NCBI GenBank assembly: GCA_964361825.1
Contig: CAYICB010000002.1
Coordinates: 5,845 to 69,844 of the forward strand
DNA length: 64,000 nt
DNA from: an uncultured Candidatus Saccharibacteria bacterium
GTDB lineage: Bacteria; Patescibacteriota; Minisyncoccia; Phycocordibacterales; JACOZG01
Direction: 5' to 3'
In this document: positions 3,107 through 49,885 of the stretch, one piece after another
How the letters are laid out: every line of letters begins with the position of its first letter
How positions within the stretch are numbered: position 1 is the first letter of the stretch
Translations under genes and position numbers: made by a program
The notes under the pieces: model-generated
Database searches by the model: none
Told to the model about the DNA's origin: nothing
Seen by the model: the letters and a program-made list of their open reading frames with translations, nothing else

Positions 3107-4060
3107 ATGTCTCTCTCAATTGGCATTGTGGGCCTACCAAATGTGGGAAAATCGACGCTGTTTAATGCCCTGACGGGGAAGGGCGTGCCGGCGGAGAATT
3201 ATCCGTTTTGTACCATTGATCCATCGGTGGGGATTGTGGGCGTGCCCGACCCTAGGCTGGCTAAATTGGCAGAATTTAGTAAATCGGCCAAGACGATTCC
3301 GGCGGCGATTGAATTTGTTGACATTGCGGGGCTGGTGAAAGGCGCCTCCAAGGGCGAGGGCCTCGGGAATCAATTTCTCTCGCATATTCGTGAAGTGGAT
3401 GCGATTCTGCACATGGTGCGCGTTTTTGCCGACGACAAAGTGACGCATGTGAACAATAAAGTGGATCCTCTAAACGATATCGAAACGATTGGTTTGGAAC
3501 TCATTCTCGCTGACCTCGCCACGGTAGAGAAGCGCCGCAGTAATTTGCAAAAAGAGGTGAAGCGCGGAGATAAAAATGCGATTGCCGAAGACGCCCAATT
3601 GGCCGAAGCTGAAGCATTGCTGAAAGATGGCAAGCCCTCCTTCGCGATTAAACATTTGCACCTCTTGAGCGCCAAACCCGTGTTCTATGTGCTCAACACT
3701 TCAAGTGCAACAGAGAACGCCCCCACTTCATTCGTTGGTAACGAACTTCGCGGGGCAGGAGTGGTGGTAAAAGTTGATCCCGTCTTTGGCGAGGGGCTCG
3801 ATGATCTAATTAAAGCGAGTTATAAATTGCTGGGCCTTGCGACCTATTTTACAACAGGGGAAGATGAAACGCGGGCTTGGACCTTCAAACTCGGTTCCAC
3901 GGCGCCGGAGGCGGCCGCGGCGATTCACACCGACTTCCGCGATAAATTTATTAAAGCCGATGTGATTAATTGGGAAGATCTTCTCGCCGGCGGCCACTGG
4001 CGCTTGGAAGGTAAAGAATACTTGGTAAAAGATGGGGATGTGATTGAGTTTAAAATATAA
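3107..4060 (+). CDS. ychF: ribosome-binding ATPase YchF (Obg-like GTPase family)
   Basis: N-terminal GIVGLPNVGKSTLFNALT P-loop, coiled-coil insert, C-terminal TGS-like region (GDVIEFKI). Confidence 0.9.
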   Translation: MSLSIGIVGLPNVGKSTLFNALTGKGVPAENYPFCTIDPSVGIVGVPDPRLAKLAEFSKSAKTIPAAIEFVDIAGLVKGASKGEGLGNQFLSHIREVDAILHMVRVFADDKVTHVNNKVDPLNDIETIGLELILADLATVEKRRSNLQKEVKRGDKNAIAEDAQLAEAEALLKDGKPSFAIKHLHLLSAKPVFYVLNTSSATENAPTSFVGNELRGAGVVVKVDPVFGEGLDDLIKASYKLLGLATYFTTGEDETRAWTFKLGSTAPEAAAAIHTDFRDKFIKADVINWEDLLAGGHWRLEGKEYLVKDGDVIEFKI

Positions 4061-4065
4061 AAAAA

Positions 4066-4098
4066 GACCGGCACGCATGGTGCCGGGTTGCCTTTTTT
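4066..4098. terminator. rho-independent terminator (hairpin CCGGCAC-GCATG-GTGCCGG plus T6), between convergent genes
   Basis: Perfect 7-bp GC stem followed by a T-run on the plus strand and an A-run upstream. Serves ychF and the convergent ORF. Confidence 0.7.
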
Positions 4099-4107
4099 GA
4101 TTTGGGG

Positions 4108-4554
4108 TTAACAAAATAAAGGCAGATAATTACTCGAGGGTAGTTTAATCTCTGATGACCACCCACTCACACGGAGAACAAAGGTGACATTCGACCTCGA
4201 CTTATCGAGGTAAACCTCCAATGAAGAAAACTCCACCAAGAGGTTAGAGACTACCAATCCAGTTTGAGTTTCTGGATCGAAAGACACTCCTTTGTTCGGT
4301 CGAAGAAATAAGTCAAAATCCACGGTGACATTGCGTGGGATCAAAGAACGCGGCAGGTTGTGAGGAAAATTAATTTGCGGATAATGAGGGGTAACATTAT
4401 CACTGATGGTGTTTTCTACCACCAAACTCACAAACCAACCTTCTTGCCCTTTGTGATAGGGGAAAATTACAAACCTTACTTTTGGGTATAGTTTGCCGCC
4501 CTCCACCTCTACCTTCGGTATTATGCCCCAATCCGAATCTTTTCCAATGTGCAT
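4108..4554 (-). CDS. hypothetical protein
   Basis: 148-aa ORF, no recognisable motif. Confidence 0.35.
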   Translation of the reverse strand: MHIGKDSDWGIIPKVEVEGGKLYPKVRFVIFPYHKGQEGWFVSLVVENTISDNVTPHYPQINFPHNLPRSLIPRNVTVDFDLFLRPNKGVSFDPETQTGLVVSNLLVEFSSLEVYLDKSRSNVTFVLRVSGWSSEIKLPSSNYLPLFC

Positions 4555-4643
4555 ATCGCACCTCCTTTTCTGGTTTAATAAATATCAAAAAGAGGGGTGG
4601 TTGTCAATGGTTTGTTTTGTTTGATCGGTGTTATCATTTAAAA

Positions 4644-5195
4644 ATGCAAAATTCACGCTTTCTCAAATGGATCTTGGCTCTCGCTATTGTGATTGTTCTT
4701 AACCTCTTTTTCAATTACGCCATCCACTTGGTTTATGAAGCGCCACAGTGGGAAAATTTTTGTCCAACCAAACAAGTAAATATTATGCCTCAAACCAAAG
4801 AAGCTTGTTTAGATGAAGGCGGTAGTTGGACAGAGGAAAATGGTGAAATGATAACGACAATACCTCTTTTTGGTCCTGGAGATTCGGCCCCAAGGCGTAC
4901 TAGCTATTGCGATGTTAACTTCACCTGTGACCGAGAATTCGACAGTTATCAATCAGTTTATAATCGCAATGTTTTCTTGATCTTAGTGGGAGCTGGCCTA
5001 GCAACACTGTTGCTTAGCCTTTTTGTTGCCCTCACTTCACCTGTTTCGCTCGGCCTCTCGCTTGGCGGCGTGCTCTCAATAATTGTTGGTTCAATTCGTT
5101 ATTGGTCGGAGATGCAAGATTACCTCCGCGTCATTCTCCTCGCCGTCGCTCTTATTCTCCTCATCTGGCTCGGCATCAAGAAGTTTAGGGAATAA
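4644..5195 (+). CDS. hypothetical membrane protein (probable start at 4644 rather than 4482)
   Basis: The in-frame ATG at 4644 avoids overlap with the convergent ORF. N-terminal TM helix and two C-terminal TM helices. Confidence 0.45.
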   Translation: MQNSRFLKWILALAIVIVLNLFFNYAIHLVYEAPQWENFCPTKQVNIMPQTKEACLDEGGSWTEENGEMITTIPLFGPGDSAPRRTSYCDVNFTCDREFDSYQSVYNRNVFLILVGAGLATLLLSLFVALTSPVSLGLSLGGVLSIIVGSIRYWSEMQDYLRVILLAVALILLIWLGIKKFRE

Positions 5196-5201
5196 ATCAC
5201 C

Positions 5202-5909
5202 CTAACTGTTGAACATCGGATGTTCAACAATCTCTGCCAGATCTTTGGCCCCACTTGTTTGTACCCATTCGTGATAATCATCACTTTTTGCAAACTGTTC
5301 GCGAATTGGCTCGGTGTGTAGGAGGTTTGACCAACGGTTCTTAGAAAGGAAGTCTTGATAACTAGACCAAGGATATTCATGGGCCTTATTTCTCCAGCCA
5401 GTTAGCTCACAACAATTCCGATGAATATAAGCTGAGGCATATAACAGCTGTTCATTGTCGCCGATATGCGAAAATTTAAAAGCCCCCTGAAATAAGTAAC
5501 CACTCGCTTGGTATTTGGTATTAAAATATTTGGTGTAACTGTTACCCACTCTTTGCATATACTTCGATATTCCTCCCTCCTTTACTTCTTCTGCGATCAA
5601 GTGAAAATGATTAGGCATCAAGGCGAAGGCAATGAGACGCAGTCCGCGTTCTCGGGTGATTTTTTCTTCCATTGCCCTGTCAGTGTTGAACATCCGATGT
5701 TCAACATATCGAGTGACAAGTCGACCGGGGTTGTCGATTGTTTCTGGCCCTTGAAAATAAAGAAGGGAAAGCAAAAACCGAGCTCGATCACGATCGTCGA
5801 GAAAAATTTTCCTCTTTAAAACCCCGCGGTTGTAAATATGATAAAATTCACCGGGAGCTAATGTTTGCACTCGTTTCATGGTGTCTGTTGAACATCCGAT
5901 GTTCAACAT
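5202..5909 (-). CDS. IS200/IS605-like Y1 (HUH) tyrosine transposase, RAYT-like
   Basis: FYHIYNRG ... MPNHFHLI (HuH motif) ... catalytic-Tyr region YIHRN ... YPWSSY. This is the standard Y1 transposase / REP-associated tyrosine transposase layout. Both gene ends and one internal site carry the 23-bp palindrome. Confidence 0.75.
   Translation of the reverse strand: MLNIGCSTDTMKRVQTLAPGEFYHIYNRGVLKRKIFLDDRDRARFLLSLLYFQGPETIDNPGRLVTRYVEHRMFNTDRAMEEKITRERGLRLIAFALMPNHFHLIAEEVKEGGISKYMQRVGNSYTKYFNTKYQASGYLFQGAFKFSHIGDNEQLLYASAYIHRNCCELTGWRNKAHEYPWSSYQDFLSKNRWSNLLHTEPIREQFAKSDDYHEWVQTSGAKDLAEIVEHPMFNS
5207..5229. repeat. REP-like 23-bp palindrome TGTTGAACATCGGATGTTCAACA (copy at 3' end of RAYT gene)
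   Basis: Perfect 11+1+11 palindrome. Identical copies at 5684, 5886 and 14442; a compensatory variant at 49814. Confidence 0.8.
5684..5706. repeat. REP-like palindrome copy (inside RAYT coding sequence)
   Basis: TGTTGAACATCCGATGTTCAACA, translated in frame as VEHRMFN. Confidence 0.8.
5886..5908. repeat. REP-like palindrome copy (at 5' end of RAYT gene)
   Basis: TGTTGAACATCCGATGTTCAACA, overlapping the annotated start codon region. Confidence 0.8.
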
Positions 5910-5943
5910 TATACGGTATCGTAAGGATTGTGTTTGGGAACAA

Positions 5944-8900
5944 CTATCTCGTCAACTCCTTCATCCCTTCTACCACGAGGCTGGGTTCGCCGTTTCTTAG
6001 CGAGAGTTTGCCTTTAATCGCCACGCATTTTTCGGGTTCGAGGAGTTCGCGACATTCGGCAAAAGTGCGCGAGAAAATTACGAGCTCAATGGAGTCGTTG
6101 AAGTCGGTGAGTTTAGCAAAGCACATCCGGTCGCCCTTCTTAGTGTTAATCAGTTTAATTTCTTCTAACACGCCGGCCACCACGGTGGCGGTGCCGTCTT
6201 TCAAACCTTTGATTTTAGTAATCGAGCGACCAATCGCTTCAATTTTCTCGCGGAATTCTTCGAGCGGATGACCAGAAACATAGAGACCGAGTAGCTCTTT
6301 TTCCCAAGCGAGTTTTTCTTTAGCCGAGATATCGGGCGCCGGTTTGAGTTTGAAGTCGGGCACACTCGCTTTATCGGTCATCGCCGAAAAGAGTGAGTCT
6401 TGATTGCCACCCAATTTGCCACGCTCGCGATTATACTCAAGCGCCGCGTCTAAATTGGCGAGCAAGGTCCCTCTTTCTCCTGCCTTAGAGTTGGGAGAGC
6501 TAAAACAATCCATTGCGCCCGATTTAATCAGCGCTTCGAGTGATTTTTTATTCAAATTACGATGAGTAATGCGCTCAAGCAGGTCGCTAAAACTTTTGAA
6601 CGGGCCTCTCGTTTTGCGCTCACGCACAATCACTTCAGCAATCTCGGCCCCCAAGTTTTTGATGGTCAGCAAACCGAAACTAATTTTATCGCCGTCGGCA
6701 CGGGGCACCCTTGGGTCTGGGTCTTTATGGGTGACCCTTGCCGGCGCTTTGATGACCGTAAAGTCGCTGAAACTCTCATTGATATCTGGCGGTAAAACGG
6801 GGATGCCGAGCAACTTGCACTCGCTAATAATCTCGGCGATCGTTTCGATATTGCCGCTCTCGGCCGAGAGCGCGGCGGTCATATATTCACCCGGATAATT
6901 AGCCTTGAGATAAGCTGTTTGATACGCCACGCGACCATAACTCGCGGCATGCGCCTTGTTGAAGCCGTAACCCTGGAAGGGCTCAAAAAGATTCCAAATT
7001 TCTTCGGCTTTTTCTTTAGTTAAATCACTGTGTTTGATACAACCTTCAACAAACATCACATGCTGTTTCTTCATTTCTTCCGGAATCTTTTTACCGACGG
7101 CTTTGCGGAATTTATCCACTTCGCCCCAGTTGTACCCGGCCACTTCGATGGCCGTCATCAGGAGATCGTCTTGATAGACGAGCACGCCAAAGGTTGGCGC
7201 GAGATAACTCTTCATCTTCGGATGGAGAAATTTTGTTGGCTTCTTGCCATGTTTCCGCGCAATATACTCATAAATATTGTCCATCGGCCCCGGACGATAA
7301 AGCGCCACCATGACATTAATATCTTCCACGCGCGTGGGCTTAAGTTCCTTCAGCGCGCGCGTCATGCCGGTGCCATTAAGCTGAAACAGGCCAATGGTGT
7401 GACCGGCGGTAAGCATGATAAAAGTTTTTTTGTCATCGAGGGGAATTTTTTCAATATCAATTTTCTCACCTCGAGTTTTCTCGATAATTCTAATCGCGCC
7501 TTCGATAATCGAGAGGTTTCTAATGCCGAGAAAGTCGAATTTCAAGAGTCCTGCCTCTTCGACCACATACATATCAAATTGCGTAATAATCTTGCCGCCC
7601 TTCGGGTCGAATTGGAGGGGCACGAAGTCGGTGAGCGGCGTGGGCGAGATCACCACACCCGCAGCATGCACCGAGATGTGCCGAGCATTGCCTTCAATTT
7701 TCTTGGCGAGATCAATAATTTCTTTGGTTGCAGTATCGGTATCATAAAGCTGTTTTAATTCTGGTGTAATCTCAAGCGCGTGATCAATCGTCATCGGGAA
7801 GCCTTGCGAACCCATCGGGATTAAATTAGAGATTTTATCGCCCACGGCATAAGGGTGACCGAGCGCTCGCGCCACATCACGCACCGCGCCCCGCGCCATC
7901 ATCGAGCCGAAAGTACCAATTTGCGCCACATGATCTTCACCATACTTTTTCTTTACATAATCAATCACTTCATCGCGTCGACGATCGGCAAAGTCCATGT
8001 CGATATCGGGCGGGCTCGGGCGATCGGGATTAAGAAAGCGCTCGAAGGGGAGATTATAATAAAGCGGGTCAACACTAGAAATACCAATGAGATGCGAGGT
8101 AAAACAGCCGGCCGCCGAGCCTCGAGTATTGGTAAAGATGCCTTGGGCGCGGGTAAAGTTGAAGATGTCAGCCACCACGAGAAAGTAGGGAGCGTAACCC
8201 TTGTTGATAATAACTTCGAGCTCGTAAGCGAGGCGAGTGGCAGCTTCTTCTTTGCGATCGGGATTGCGTTCGAGATATTCGGGCAAGCGACTTTCGGCAA
8301 ATTTTCGTAGTTCTTCTTCTGGTGTCTCGGCGAGGGTAAGTTGAAATTTGGGAAAGACCCATTTGCCAAGCTCCAGTTTGAGATCACAAGCCTCGGCAAT
8401 TTTGAGGGTGTTATCGACGGCTTCAGGCGCGTCTTTAAAATGCTCGCGCATGGTGGCCTCGTCAATCAGTGAGAAATCATCACCGGCCTTGGTATAGCGT
8501 TTATTATCATCGGCATCAGTATTTGTACCAATCGCCACAAGCGTATCATGAGCCTTCGTGTCGTCTGGTTGTAAGTAGTGAGCATCTTGAGTAGCAACCA
8601 AGGGAATTCCCAATTCGTGAGCTAGTTTGATCGCTTGTTCTTTAAGCTCCGGATAGCGTTCAATTTTGGGGTGATGAAAAATTTCAATAAAATAATTTTC
8701 TGGGCCAAAAATTTCTCGATATTCATTAGCAATCTTTTTTGCTTCCTCATAATTCCGCGCCAGAATAGCGCGGGACAATTCACTGGCCATACAACCAGAT
8801 AAGCAAATAACCCCCTCGTGGTGCTCGCGCATCAGCTCTTTATCAATCCGTGGTTTATAATAATAACCTTCGAGGTTGGCTTTGGTCACGAGCTTAACCA

Positions 8901-9198
8901 AATTTTTATAACCCACGGCATTCTTGGCAAGCAGGGTAAGATGAAAGCGTTTGCTGTCGATATTAGCTTCTTTATCAAAGCGCGACCGCGCGGCCACATA
9001 AGCCTCCACGCCAACAATTGGCTTAATGCCCGCGCTTTGGCACTTTTTATAAAACTCAATCGCGCCATAGAGATTGCCGTGATCGGTGAGGGCGAGCGCT
9101 GGCAAACCGAGCTCCTTAGCTCGATCAACAAGATCATCAATCTTGGCCAGCCCATCAAGCAGGCTATAATGGCTGTGATTGTGAAGGTGGACAAACAT
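5944..9198 (-). CDS. dnaE: DNA polymerase III alpha subunit
   Basis: 1084 aa with a PHP domain (HLHNHSHYSLLDG), polymerase core, and C-terminal OB fold. Confidence 0.95.
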   Translation of the reverse strand: MFVHLHNHSHYSLLDGLAKIDDLVDRAKELGLPALALTDHGNLYGAIEFYKKCQSAGIKPIVGVEAYVAARSRFDKEANIDSKRFHLTLLAKNAVGYKNLVKLVTKANLEGYYYKPRIDKELMREHHEGVICLSGCMASELSRAILARNYEEAKKIANEYREIFGPENYFIEIFHHPKIERYPELKEQAIKLAHELGIPLVATQDAHYLQPDDTKAHDTLVAIGTNTDADDNKRYTKAGDDFSLIDEATMREHFKDAPEAVDNTLKIAEACDLKLELGKWVFPKFQLTLAETPEEELRKFAESRLPEYLERNPDRKEEAATRLAYELEVIINKGYAPYFLVVADIFNFTRAQGIFTNTRGSAAGCFTSHLIGISSVDPLYYNLPFERFLNPDRPSPPDIDMDFADRRRDEVIDYVKKKYGEDHVAQIGTFGSMMARGAVRDVARALGHPYAVGDKISNLIPMGSQGFPMTIDHALEITPELKQLYDTDTATKEIIDLAKKIEGNARHISVHAAGVVISPTPLTDFVPLQFDPKGGKIITQFDMYVVEEAGLLKFDFLGIRNLSIIEGAIRIIEKTRGEKIDIEKIPLDDKKTFIMLTAGHTIGLFQLNGTGMTRALKELKPTRVEDINVMVALYRPGPMDNIYEYIARKHGKKPTKFLHPKMKSYLAPTFGVLVYQDDLLMTAIEVAGYNWGEVDKFRKAVGKKIPEEMKKQHVMFVEGCIKHSDLTKEKAEEIWNLFEPFQGYGFNKAHAASYGRVAYQTAYLKANYPGEYMTAALSAESGNIETIAEIISECKLLGIPVLPPDINESFSDFTVIKAPARVTHKDPDPRVPRADGDKISFGLLTIKNLGAEIAEVIVRERKTRGPFKSFSDLLERITHRNLNKKSLEALIKSGAMDCFSSPNSKAGERGTLLANLDAALEYNRERGKLGGNQDSLFSAMTDKASVPDFKLKPAPDISAKEKLAWEKELLGLYVSGHPLEEFREKIEAIGRSITKIKGLKDGTATVVAGVLEEIKLINTKKGDRMCFAKLTDFNDSIELVIFSRTFAECRELLEPEKCVAIKGKLSLRNGEPSLVVEGMKELTR

Positions 9199-9257
9199 TG
9201 AGCCGATTATAGCAAATGTGCTAGGGTGATACAGGGCTTTTTGAAAGGAGGAAGGTT

Positions 9258-9674
9258 ATGCACGTTCACCACGAGGATTTACCTACGCGCGTTGGGATAA
9301 TCATGAGAAGACTCTTTGCTGGAGAATACCAGCTTTTATTTAAAGCTGGTAATGAATCGAAGATTTGGAGTATCCCCGAAGACATGATGAACGTAAACGA
9401 GACACCAAATGATGCGTTCTGGCGAATTCTCAAAACATTCACTGTGAACTGGGAACGCGAAACGGTGGTTTTTGAGAAGGTTGGCGATGTGAAAGCTTGG
9501 CCATTAAAAACAAGAAACACGCCCCTGTACCGACTCTATTTGGTTGAACCACTCCCACTGATTTCAAGCCACCAATGCTCTTTTTGTTTAAGTTGGCTTG
9601 GCGATCGGGAACTGAAAAACACGGGAGTCGAACTATCAAGCATCGTACCGCTGCTAACGACCAAATATCTTTGA
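9258..9674 (+). CDS. hypothetical protein (possible degenerate Nudix-like fold)
   Basis: 138 aa. The segment ETPNDAFWRILKTFTV resembles a Nudix box (ETPEEAAxRELKEETGL) with the catalytic residues replaced. Weak. Confidence 0.3.
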   Translation: MHVHHEDLPTRVGIIMRRLFAGEYQLLFKAGNESKIWSIPEDMMNVNETPNDAFWRILKTFTVNWERETVVFEKVGDVKAWPLKTRNTPLYRLYLVEPLPLISSHQCSFCLSWLGDRELKNTGVELSSIVPLLTTKYL

Positions 9675-9679
9675 GCCCC

Positions 9680-9714
9680 ACGGGTTGCCGCCAACGGCAA
9701 CCCTTATTTTTTTG
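9680..9714 (+). terminator. rho-independent terminator (GGGTTGCCG-ccaa-CGGCAACCC plus T-run)
   Basis: Perfect 9-bp stem followed by TTATTTTTTT. Confidence 0.7.
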
Positions 9715-9739
9715 TAAAAAATAGGCTTAAAATACAGAG

Positions 9740-10330
9740 ATGAAATCCAAACACCTAGTTGGCATTGATGAAGCGGGGCGGGGGCCGCTCGCCGGGCCGG
9801 TGGCGGTTGGTGTAGTAACCACGAGGGGAACCCTCGTGGTAAAAAGGTGGCAAGGAATAAAGGATTCTAAACAACTAAGTGAAAAACAACGAGAAGCGTG
9901 GTTTGCTAAGCTGAAAACAGCAAAAATAGCTGGCGAAATAGACTTTGCCGTGGCTTTGGTGAGTAATAAAGTGATTGATCAGAAAGGAATAAATGTGGCG
10001 ATTAAGCTAGGAATTCGCCGGGTCACGGCAAGGATGCTCCTTGCCGCAAAAGATTGCTTGGTTTTGCTTGATGGTGGCCTCAAGGCACCGGCCGAGTTTG
10101 TAAACCAAAAAACCATCATTCGCGGCGATGAAAAAGAACCAATTATCGCTCTGGCCTCTATTGTGGCTAAGGTTACGCGCGACCACTTCATGCAAAAAAT
10201 GGCCCAAAAGTACCCAAATTACGGCTTCGAGGTTCATAAGGGTTATGGCACACTTTCGCATCGTCAGTCAATTAAAAACAATGGCCTTTCGCCTATCCAC
10301 CGAACTAGCTTTTTGAAGTCAAAATTTTAA
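9740..10330 (+). CDS. rnhB: ribonuclease HII
   Basis: GIDEAGRGPLAGPV active-site motif; length 196 aa. Confidence 0.9.
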   Translation: MKSKHLVGIDEAGRGPLAGPVAVGVVTTRGTLVVKRWQGIKDSKQLSEKQREAWFAKLKTAKIAGEIDFAVALVSNKVIDQKGINVAIKLGIRRVTARMLLAAKDCLVLLDGGLKAPAEFVNQKTIIRGDEKEPIIALASIVAKVTRDHFMQKMAQKYPNYGFEVHKGYGTLSHRQSIKNNGLSPIHRTSFLKSKF

Positions 10331-14407: not shown

Positions 14408-14441
14408 TTTTTTCTTGCTCAAAAGTTTTTGCTAGGTACAA

Positions 14442-14464
14442 TGTTGAACATCGGATGTTCAACA
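14442..14464. repeat. REP-like palindrome copy upstream of the MGMT-like gene
   Basis: TGTTGAACATCGGATGTTCAACA, identical to copies in the RAYT locus about 9 kb away. Confidence 0.8.
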
Positions 14465-23495: not shown

Positions 23496-24563
23496 GTGCA
23501 AAATAAAGGTCGAGTGGTAGTGGCTATGTCGGGCGGGGTAGATAGCTCGGTGGCGGCGGCTTTGCTTAAAGAGCAAGGTTATGAAGTGGTGGGCGCGTTT
23601 ATTAAGGTGTGGGAACCCCCAAAAGGCTGGGGTGGTGCGGCTGACGTGTGTAATTGGCGCGCCGAACGCCGAGAAGCGATGCGCGCCGCGGCCAAGCTTG
23701 AGATTCCACTTCTCACCTTCGACCTAAGTGAAGAATATAAAAAAGGCGTGGTGGATTATATGATTGCCGAATATCGCGCGGGGCGGACGCCAAACCCCGA
23801 TGTGATGTGTAATAAAGAAATTAAGTTTGGGGCTTTCTGGCAAGCCGTTAAAGCAAAAATAAAACCAGACTTCATTGCCACTGGTCACTATGCAATTAGC
23901 AAAAAAGGCCAACTCTACCGAGCGAAAGATAAAACCAAAGAGCAAAGTTATTTCTTGTGGGCGATTGCGCCGAAATTGCTCCCGAAAATTATTTTCCCGA
24001 TTGGTAATTTGCGAAAAGTTGAAGTGAGAAAACTGGCGAAAAACCTTGGCTTACCCAATGCCGAGAAGCCGGATAGTCAAGGTTTGTGTTTTATTGGCAA
24101 AATTGATTTCAAAGACTTTTTGAAAAATTTTATTAAAGAAAAACCGGGAAAAGTGCTCAACGAAAAGGGGGAGGTGGTAGGAAAACATCCGGGAGCCACC
24201 TTTTTCACCCTTGGCGAACGCCATGGTTTTATCCTTGATAAGCAAACACCAAACGAAGAAAAACATTATGTAATTGCTAAAGATTTAAAGAAAAACACGC
24301 TTACCGTGGCTTCTCGCGCGCAAACAAAAGTTCACGACCGTGAACTTTTGTTAACCAATACCAATTGGCATCAATTACCAAAACCAAACCAAATTTATCA
24401 AGCCCAGATTCGTTATCACGGCAAGGAGCATCCTTGCCGAGTGAAGCAAAAAGGTAAAAATTGGCTGGTCTTATTTGAGCAAACACCCGATTTTCCCGCG
24501 GCCGGACAATCGCTCGTTGTTTATGACGGTTCCCTTTGTTTAGGTGGCGGCGTGATTGCTTAA
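23496..24563 (+). CDS. mnmA: tRNA 2-thiouridine(34) synthase MnmA
   Basis: PP-loop SGGVDSSVAA, catalytic Cys motifs, C-terminal beta-barrel. Confidence 0.9.
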   Translation: MQNKGRVVVAMSGGVDSSVAAALLKEQGYEVVGAFIKVWEPPKGWGGAADVCNWRAERREAMRAAAKLEIPLLTFDLSEEYKKGVVDYMIAEYRAGRTPNPDVMCNKEIKFGAFWQAVKAKIKPDFIATGHYAISKKGQLYRAKDKTKEQSYFLWAIAPKLLPKIIFPIGNLRKVEVRKLAKNLGLPNAEKPDSQGLCFIGKIDFKDFLKNFIKEKPGKVLNEKGEVVGKHPGATFFTLGERHGFILDKQTPNEEKHYVIAKDLKKNTLTVASRAQTKVHDRELLLTNTNWHQLPKPNQIYQAQIRYHGKEHPCRVKQKGKNWLVLFEQTPDFPAAGQSLVVYDGSLCLGGGVIA

Positions 24564-49790: not shown

Positions 49791-49813
49791 GCGACCGCAA
49801 CCACCCGCCAGAT

Positions 49814-49836
49814 GTTTGACATCCGATGTCACACAT
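49814..49836. repeat. REP-like palindrome, divergent copy (TGTTTGACATCCGATGTCACACA) followed by a T-rich tract
   Basis: Same core (ACATCCGATGT) with symmetric compensatory changes in the arms, preserving the hairpin. Confidence 0.55.
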
Positions 49837-49885
49837 CCACGGCGGGTTTTCTTTTGTCTTTTTGCCGAAAAGAGCCTAGAATGGC

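Follow-up and report, generated by a model that had tools for sequence, protein, structure and literature searches.

Within the 64,000-nt stretch of contig CAYICB010000002.1 from an uncultured Candidatus Saccharibacteria bacterium (hereafter the window), a minus-strand gene for a small tyrosine nuclease lies between two copies of a perfect 23-nt palindrome and carries a third copy in frame within its own coding sequence (CDS). We interpret this locus as a REPtron-like unit: a low-copy, probably domesticated gene for a Y1 HUH endonuclease of single-stranded DNA (ssDNA), of the type of the tyrosine transposases associated with repetitive extragenic palindromes (REPs), the RAYTs, accompanied by its cognate REP-like hairpins. 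We put the probability of this reading at roughly 70%. The presence of REPs within RAYT genes is already known (TnpAY1 subclass 2.4). What appears to be new here is a family spread across the Candidate Phyla Radiation (CPR; Patescibacteria), a perfect 23-nt hairpin without a GTAG tag, a fixed three-site layout and covariation of the hairpin pair by pair.

The palindrome, TGTTGAACATC-[G/C]-GATGTTCAACA, occurs in four exact copies, three of them at the RAYT-like gene (Table 1). All four had been listed in a sequence-only reading of the same DNA, and each was verified. Tolerating up to three mismatches returned just the same four matches, and 100 dinucleotide-preserving shuffles of the window returned none (0 expected by chance); the 11-nt half-site was matched nine times against 1.0 expected. 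As ssDNA each 23-mer folds into a stem of 10 bp and a loop of 3 nt, at −8.6 to −8.9 kcal/mol and with z between −3.7 and −5.4. The downstream copy is inverted relative to the upstream one and encodes the last residues of the protein, VEHPMFNS, before the stop codon. The foot of the exact copies is TGT...ACA, and the sole flank bias that we could read by eye is a richness in A on the 5' side for one of the loop orientations.

Table 1. Positions of the RAYT-like gene and of the palindrome copies in the window
Feature	Position	Strand	Remarks
RAYT-like Y1 HUH endonuclease gene	5202-5879	-	225 aa; stop codon 5204-5202
Upstream palindrome	5886-5908		6 nt before ATG; central base G on coding strand; folds as DNA hairpin
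Internal in-frame palindrome, site A	5684-5706		encodes V59-N65 (VEHRMFN) of the 225-aa protein, upstream of HUH motif
Downstream palindrome	5207-5229		overlaps 3' end of CDS; central base C on coding strand
Solo exact palindrome	14442-14464		in 59-nt spacer between end of smc-like gene (14407) and small MGMT-like open reading frame
Degenerate relative of palindrome (plausible)	49814-49836		TGTTTGACATCCGATGTCACACA; 5 substitutions, 10/11 pairs; upstream of murA

The RAYT-like gene and its family

The gene had first been given as the open reading frame (ORF) 5202-5909, which is indeed present on the minus strand in the ORF list of the window. Alignment with homologues, however, sets the probable start at the ATG at 5879 (MKRV...), the ATG at 5909 falling within the upstream palindrome; the upstream palindrome therefore lies 5' of the gene. 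The HUH motif (HFH, residues 91-93, codons 5609-5601) and the catalytic tyrosine of YIHRN (Y151, codon 5429-5427) are both present, and H91, H93 and Y151 are invariant in 66 sequences. Family motifs are NHFH, FQG, YIH[RL]NP and WSS. The consensus of the tyrosine motif, YIHRNP, is of the class-2 form Y-x-x-x-N-P and not the Y-x-x-x-Q of IS200; in the window protein, as in several close homologues, the proline is replaced by cysteine (YIHRNC).

A hidden Markov model (HMM) search, which the sequence-only reading had proposed as a check, matched the protein to Pfam Y1_Tnp (PF01797) at 36.9 bits against a cutoff of 23 (E=4.4e-9); Y1_Tnp was the sole Pfam match, and no helix-turn-helix (HTH) domain was found. 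Because a sequence-profile search of the PDB gave weak matches only (ISDra2 at E=0.04), a fold search was required. We took advantage of an AlphaFold2 model built on 66 homologues, an alignment dominated by palindrome-bearing sequences (predicted local distance difference test score, pLDDT, 92; predicted template-modelling score, pTM, 0.89). Foldseek returned as top PDB match 4ER8, the complex of E. coli TnpA_REP with a REP hairpin (E=5e-6, target TM 0.70), with weaker matches to the TnpA proteins of IS608, ISDra2 and IS200 (E of about 1e-3 to 1e-2). The top PDB matches of the fold search are all Y1 enzymes (4ER8, 2VJV, 2XMA, 2F4F and 2EC2), and the model itself has the four-stranded sheet, the HUH motif on beta3 and the tyrosine on the next helix that characterize the Y1 fold. 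The protein is a Y1-fold HUH enzyme whose HUH motif and catalytic tyrosine are intact and conserved. Its tail encoded by the downstream palindrome (residues 215-225) is disordered in the model (pLDDT <50).

Relatives of the protein are numerous, with more than 2300 in the database at E≤1e-3 and 1161 clusters (50% identity) at E≤1e-30 in a full HMM scan. Those with a named host come nearly all from Patescibacteria/CPR (Vogelbacteria, Paceibacterota, Giovannonibacteria, Zambryskibacteria and others), and their annotation is merely 'transposase'. The sequence-only reading had called a complete RAYT in a seemingly reduced genome noteworthy; by these numbers the system is no rarity there, and RAYT classes are known well outside Proteobacteria (PMC6006769). 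In our literature search, RAYT, TnpAREP and REPtron were not linked to CPR/Patescibacteria, apart from a KEGG annotation mentioned in passing.

A scan of species-representative genomes yielded more than 500 loci, of which 80 were kept with their flanks (homologous loci and contigs are given below by L numbers). We surveyed 85 genes, that of the window and 84 in these loci, by taking for each the strongest palindrome beside either gene end and then seeking its other occurrences. In 53 of the 85 the same palindrome stands upstream, no more than 130 nt from the ATG, and again at the stop codon or immediately after it; in most family loci the upstream copy lies 2-64 nt before the ATG, typically 6-35 nt. 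The palindromes themselves are diverse across loci, including TGTTGAACATC, TGTCCAAAGC, TGTGCAAAGT, TGAGCAACATC, TGTTCGGAGTC and more, with TACAAGGGT, GTTTAGAGGTT and CTTGGCGGTG among further locus-specific ones. The 21-nt cores of flanking and internal copies nevertheless differ by a mean of only 0.83 mismatches within a locus, against 10.3 between loci. Among loci with an asymmetric loop, 13 have their upstream and downstream copies in inverted orientation to one another and 5 have them direct; the internal copy favours neither orientation with respect to the flanks (13 direct, 9 inverted). Comparative sequence evidence of this kind marks the flanking palindromes as a family trait that co-varies with the gene, and the layout of gene and palindromes is the REPtron arrangement as described for RAYTs (Nunvar 2010, PMC2817692; Ton-Hoang 2012, PMC3333891; Messing 2012, PMC3479197, PDB 4ER8). 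Together, the Pfam match, the 4ER8 fold match and the recurrence in homologous loci bear out the earlier proposal that cognate REP-like palindromes bracket a Y1 gene of RAYT type.

The internal palindrome

The sequence-only reading had raised the possibility that VEHRMFN, the peptide encoded by the internal copy, was inserted relative to homologues. The alignment contradicts this: the segment (site A) has no gaps and a fixed position across the family. In the model it forms the end of helix 51-61 and the following loop, between beta1 (12-19) and beta2 (80-87), an extra element outside the Pfam and ISDra2 alignments. An internal copy is present in 29 of the 53 genes that have both flanking copies. 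When the position of site A was set by the protein alignment alone, at least 9 of 11 complementary pairs were found in 16 of 59 genes, where chance would give this at about 1e-4 per gene, and the bimodal distribution peaks at 1-4 and at 9-11 pairs.

The peptides at site A vary as reverse-complement codon pairs: VEHRMFN, VKHRMFN, VKHRVFD, VQHRVLD and VQSRALD, and further VQSSTLH, VRNRVSN, EQHRMLL and VRSPTPN. In a covariation test on 27 aligned 27-mers, 91% of cells were paired and 10 of 11 stem pairs had changes on both sides; the covariation score was 0.51, against 0.23 for shuffled alignments (0 of 500 reached it) and at most 0.12 with the partners slid. As judged from these alignments, the conserved entity at site A is a DNA (or RNA) palindrome and not a peptide, and the sequence of the internal peptide would be dictated by the palindrome rather than the reverse.

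The family has two internal sites. Site A, the one used in the window, is found 75-105 nt ahead of the HUH codons. Site B, just after the tyrosine motif and before WSS, is used in another clade, and one gene (L077) has both sites, each encoding GGETAK. Members that have no internal palindrome retain the segment and the flanking palindromes, and the protein is therefore independent of the internal copy. In some distant family members we also observed, at about the place of site A, much longer internal palindromes of 38-52 nt with arms of 19-26 nt (L074:326-377, L052:5957-6002 and L058:3296-3333).

These observations allow a neutral account of the internal copy only, to which we give somewhat less than even odds: it would be a functionless passenger, a REP that entered a tolerant segment in frame long ago and has since been passively overwritten through gene conversion by the flanking copies. 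Several members (L004, L005, L028, L034, L018 and L023-26) keep the ungapped peptide segment and have lost the palindrome, the use of site B in other clades points the same way, and the in-frame REPs of subclass 2.4 RAYT genes were likewise judged peripheral (PMC6006769). The upstream copy of L001, moreover, has hybrid arms, which suggest mechanical exchange between copies. Against this account, site A is occupied, by many palindrome sequences, in lineages at 36% to 100% protein identity, which would need repeated capture or long retention, and the segment is modelled as ordered (pLDDT >90), though on the palindrome-dominated alignment. Most likely the internal copy is a resident substrate tolerated in a permissive segment of the protein; that it additionally serves self-limitation or autoregulation is speculative. 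We also entertained, as a doubtful option, that the internal hairpin is a selected cis-element of a self-referential system. The recognition site of the enzyme would then be held at a fixed place in its own gene, a protein segment would evolve as the 'translation' of the DNA target, and the enzyme would act on its own gene. It may limit itself by nicking or binding there, or the internal copy may be a protected master template that re-seeds the flanking and dispersed copies. If so, active homogenisation of sequences by a RAYT could be studied experimentally in ultra-small CPR genomes.

Dispersed copies, mobility and a proposed mechanism

Outside the gene, the window holds the solo exact copy, 2 nt from the ATG (14467) of the MGMT-like ORF, and the degenerate relative at 49814-49836. 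The latter had been described as a variant with compensatory arm changes. It does have the core ACATCCGATGT in common with the main palindrome as well as two compensated positions, but one pair is broken, and its membership in the same repeat family is plausible rather than proven. Dispersed copies thus exist, as the sequence-only reading held, but thinly: one exact solo copy and one degenerate one in 64 kb make 'repetitive' only weakly apt.

The exact 23-mer was found in 30 metagenomic contigs, seven of which encode a family member; the other 23 have no RAYT homologue within the stretch retrieved, which for some is only 1-2 kb. The copies on those 23 lie either between genes, frequently near a gene end, or in frame within housekeeping genes. 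Six contigs carry the 23-mer in frame in glutamate racemase murI as KLVEHPMFNIS (L082:447-1280 on the minus strand, L083, L086, L089, L090 and L101) and two in trmD as RNVEHRMFNKS (L106:1628-2356, plus strand; L107:1505-2437, minus strand). The loop of TrmD that holds the element is hypervariable, and of the orthologues lacking the element even the nearest shares only about 80% identity. Family loci likewise hold solo copies and close doublets, for example in L010 (27 nt apart), L031 and L059.

A partial left arm directly precedes the full palindrome in some contigs, for example TGTTGAACATCT-TGTTGAACATCCGATGTTCAACA (L098:3315-3352, L104:6009-6045 and L107:1975-2012), and in L107 it adds MFNK-MFNK to TrmD. 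Such extra arms may be the footprint of a copying or joining reaction, or of slippage.

Given the Y1 fold, we considered whether the locus is an autonomous insertion sequence (IS) of the IS200/IS605 type, the outer palindromes being its left-end and right-end hairpins, the 0.7-kb cassette moving by peel-and-paste and the solo palindromes marking excision or insertion scars. The cassette is compact and exactly fills the gap between a membrane-protein gene and dnaE, the model matches the TnpA proteins of IS608 and ISDra2 at E of about 1e-3, several genomes hold two or three paralogues (the window holds one copy), and the gene occurs in varied contexts across genomes. In addition, a groundwater contig aligned to window positions 4020-10083 (L092) carries a cassette with 2 differences in about 750 nt relative to window positions 5200-5950, against about 2% in dnaE. 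In that contig, however, the cassette occupies the corresponding site, between flanks of about 96% identity, which speaks against an IS, and the low divergence of the cassette could be due to a slow rate of change such as some RAYT groups reportedly have (PMC5581495), to a recent sweep or to exchange. Paralogues within one genome are only 39-73% identical, against about 99% for IS200 copies (PMC6006769), and the tyrosine motif (PMC6006769, Table 1) and the closest structural match are those of RAYTs rather than of IS transposases. No tnpB partner was found beside the gene, whose neighbours are dnaE and the membrane-protein gene, and its ends are identical perfect palindromes instead of distinct left and right ends. 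The family is also essentially absent from viral contigs (two distant relatives only), and hairpins unaccompanied by a RAYT gene in the retrieved stretch, some in frame in murI and trmD, make up 23 of the 30 contigs. An autonomous IS is therefore improbable, and, given the divergent paralogues, the shared site in L092, the missing tnpB and the identical perfect palindromes at both ends, our preference is for a low-copy gene of RAYT type that is largely resident rather than for an active IS.

On the neighbourhood of the gene we made one further observation. Among distant members (34-50% identity, with other palindromes), L055 and L073 adjoin ychF and a membrane-protein gene, and L032, L014 and L020 adjoin dnaE. 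Gene orientations differ among these neighbourhoods and the numbers are not clearly above chance; the recurrence could be accidental, or could reflect a hotspot or a long residence in which the DNA between the flanking palindromes was inverted.

A second alternative dispenses with DNA cutting and copying altogether. The palindromes would be host cis-regulatory elements, either operators of a dimeric protein that binds double-stranded DNA (possibly this protein as a repressor) or RNA hairpins governing translation, transcript stability or termination. Their perfect two-fold symmetry is typical of operators, the upstream copy and the solo copy stand 6 nt and 2 nt from the next ATG, the 49814 copy and one in L091 lie within GC-clamped, T-tailed terminator-like hairpins, and REPs elsewhere reportedly work as 3'-untranslated-region elements (10.64898/2026.03.23.713779). 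Yet the invariant catalytic HUH and tyrosine argue for retained nuclease chemistry, the 23-mer makes little sense as operator or terminator in frame in unrelated housekeeping genes, and rapid turnover combined with within-locus identity suits copying better than it suits three independently kept operators. Moreover, the gene-associated copies are followed by no T-run, a promoter and terminator scan of 4900-6200 gave counts at chance level, and an Rfam search of 4800-6300 gave no match at E≤1. We regard this alternative as very improbable, and the terminator-like or regulatory role suggested for the palindromes in the sequence-only reading is not established. That reading had also allowed that the palindrome might be a ubiquitous terminator motif; with three of the four copies at the gene, 53 of 85 homologous genes flanked and no T-run after the gene-associated copies, a generic terminator is ruled out and the palindrome is tied to the gene.

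Some features around individual copies were seen on inspection. By eye, a TATAAT at window positions 5909-5915 (minus strand, before the RAYT-like gene) abuts the 5886 copy and includes the first T of the palindrome, and a TACAAT at 14436-14442 abuts the solo copy before the MGMT-like ORF, with a TTGCTC 16 nt upstream. The degenerate relative is nested in a GC-clamped, terminator-like hairpin (49803-49847) followed by a T-run (49796-49866 overall, CCCGCC...GGCGGGTTTTCTTTT, upstream of murA), and the L091 copy (2830-2890, CCCCC...GGGGGTTTTGTTTTG, upstream of an L25 gene) is similarly placed inside a longer GC-clamped hairpin, then a T-run. It looks as if the element had landed in, or been built into, intrinsic terminators.

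For the REPtron-like unit, analogy to IS608 TnpA and E. coli TnpA_REP suggests a working mechanism. On ssDNA, for example on the lagging-strand template, the palindrome would extrude as a hairpin of 10-bp stem and 3-nt loop; the enzyme would recognise it, nick nearby through a 5'-phosphotyrosine intermediate and rejoin the strands. Occasionally this nicking and rejoining would copy the hairpin to new sites and re-template resident copies, and copying, with a co-evolving protein specificity, would keep the upstream, internal and downstream copies alike. Within-locus identity fits this copying and re-templating view, as do shared imperfections (the internal and upstream copies of L006 have the same mismatch) and the hybrid arms of the L001 upstream copy.

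Several points weigh against the REPtron-like reading. We infer binding, cleavage and copying of the hairpin by the enzyme from its better-studied relatives. The recognition mode must differ from that of E. coli TnpA_REP, because that enzyme needs a 5' GTAG/GTGG tag and a bulged hairpin (PMC3479197), whereas no GTAG or GTGG was found adjoining the palindrome copies here and their stems are perfect. Perfect palindromes equally suit a dimeric binder of double-stranded DNA, and G:U and G:T counts do not discriminate DNA-level from RNA-level constraint. The one other relevant model matched besides Y1_Tnp, the RayT equivalog NF047646 (REP_Tyr_transpos) of NCBIfam, scores the protein at 37.7 bits against a cutoff of 80, and about a third of family members were without a shared flanking palindrome in our scan. 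Copy density is low: the homologous loci, about 1.1 Mb in all, contain about 10 solo copies and the window one or two, far below classical REP abundance. Finally, an alignment of TrmD orthologues with and without the 23-mer could not resolve insertion boundaries or a target duplication of the solo copy.

If the enzyme drives the concerted evolution of the copies, the genomes themselves would give direct evidence that RAYTs are active, and this would bear on the long-standing puzzle of RAYT/REP systems, namely the in vivo role of the enzyme and how REP and RAYT stay matched. One copy being read as protein, each change in hairpin specificity is recorded as paired amino-acid changes, so that the family constitutes a natural covariation data set for hairpin-protein specificity, and the 23-mer a simple biochemical substrate. 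It also illustrates that even streamlined genomes keep elements of this kind and accommodate them inside essential genes (murI and trmD).

Comparison with known systems

The unit resembles E. coli TnpA_REP in its Y1 HUH fold (the best structural match), its class-2 Y-x-x-x-N-P motif and a C-terminal extension past the IS200 core, and the E. coli REPtron in combining a low-copy gene with cognate hairpins on both sides, mostly inverted, whose type co-varies with the protein. It differs in its perfect 10-11-bp stem, which has neither bulge nor 5' GTAG/GTGG tag, in the presence of a cognate hairpin within the CDS, in its CPR/Patescibacteria host, and in a protein of 225 aa that has an extra beta1-beta2 helix-loop and a WSS-containing tail and falls below the NCBIfam RayT cutoff. 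Copy numbers are probably units to tens, not hundreds: REPs are expected at tens to hundreds genome-wide, whereas the 64 kb of genome that we saw holds one exact and one degenerate solo copy, and the split of the metagenomic contigs with the exact 23-mer (23 with no RAYT gene in the stretch retrieved, 7 with one) likewise points to a low number. Low repeat abundance has been reported for Bertels groups 1 and 4 (PMC5581495).

The closest precedent, subclass 2.4 (Bertels group 4), comes from Cyanobacteria and Bacteroidetes. Its REPs, of variable length and sequence with GT[AG]G feet, lie in frame in tnpAREP between HuH and Y, and its motifs are NH[IFV]H, WQ and YIxNNP (PMC6006769). As here, cognate REPs lie inside a RAYT gene whose frame is intact, and flanking REPs are present as well. 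The repeats of subclass 2.4 are of low abundance (Bertels 2017, PMC5581495), as is probably the case here, and its inserts were judged peripheral to the DNA-binding surface. In contrast, the main site in the present family is upstream of the HUH motif, at a fixed ungapped position, and covaries, a second site follows the tyrosine, and the motifs are NHFH, FQG, YIH[RL]NP and WSS.

Subclass 2.1/TIRYT (Bertels group 1) was reported to be without REP-like flanks and to have terminal inverted repeats GGGGWSAS and a C-terminal HTH (PMC3733652; Quentin 2018). By eye only, its NH[YF]H, FQ, Y[IV]HLNP and SS motifs and its length of about 220-240 aa are similar to ours, its motifs being the ones that look closest to those of the present family, and its paralogues are likewise low-copy and divergent; here, however, the flanks are self-complementary hairpins and Pfam detects no HTH. 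With the TnpA proteins of IS200/IS605 elements (IS608, ISDra2) the enzyme shares HUH/Y1 chemistry and, by analogy, would share recognition of subterminal ssDNA hairpins, while Y-x-x-x-Q, multi-copy near-identical elements, distinct ends with guide tetranucleotides and tnpB are absent. Intragenic REPs, REPs overlapping RAYT gene ends and Rickettsia palindromic elements have been reviewed (Di Nocera 2013, PMC3733652). Like intragenic REPs and the Rickettsia elements, the 23-mer adds a few residues in loops when in frame in housekeeping genes (here murI and trmD); unlike them, it is only 23 nt long, tied to a specific Y1 gene and embedded therein.

The remaining observations concern the window at large. 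The genes seen (ychF, dnaE, smc, leuS and murA) are consistent with a CPR chromosome; over the whole 64 kb, Rfam gave no match at gathering thresholds and no tRNA genes were found. An unrelated perfect inverted repeat with 14-nt arms, AACAAAAGTTCACG-AC-CGTGAACTTTTGTT, lies at 24323-24352, and it is adjoined by a second, imperfect palindrome at 24346-24383.

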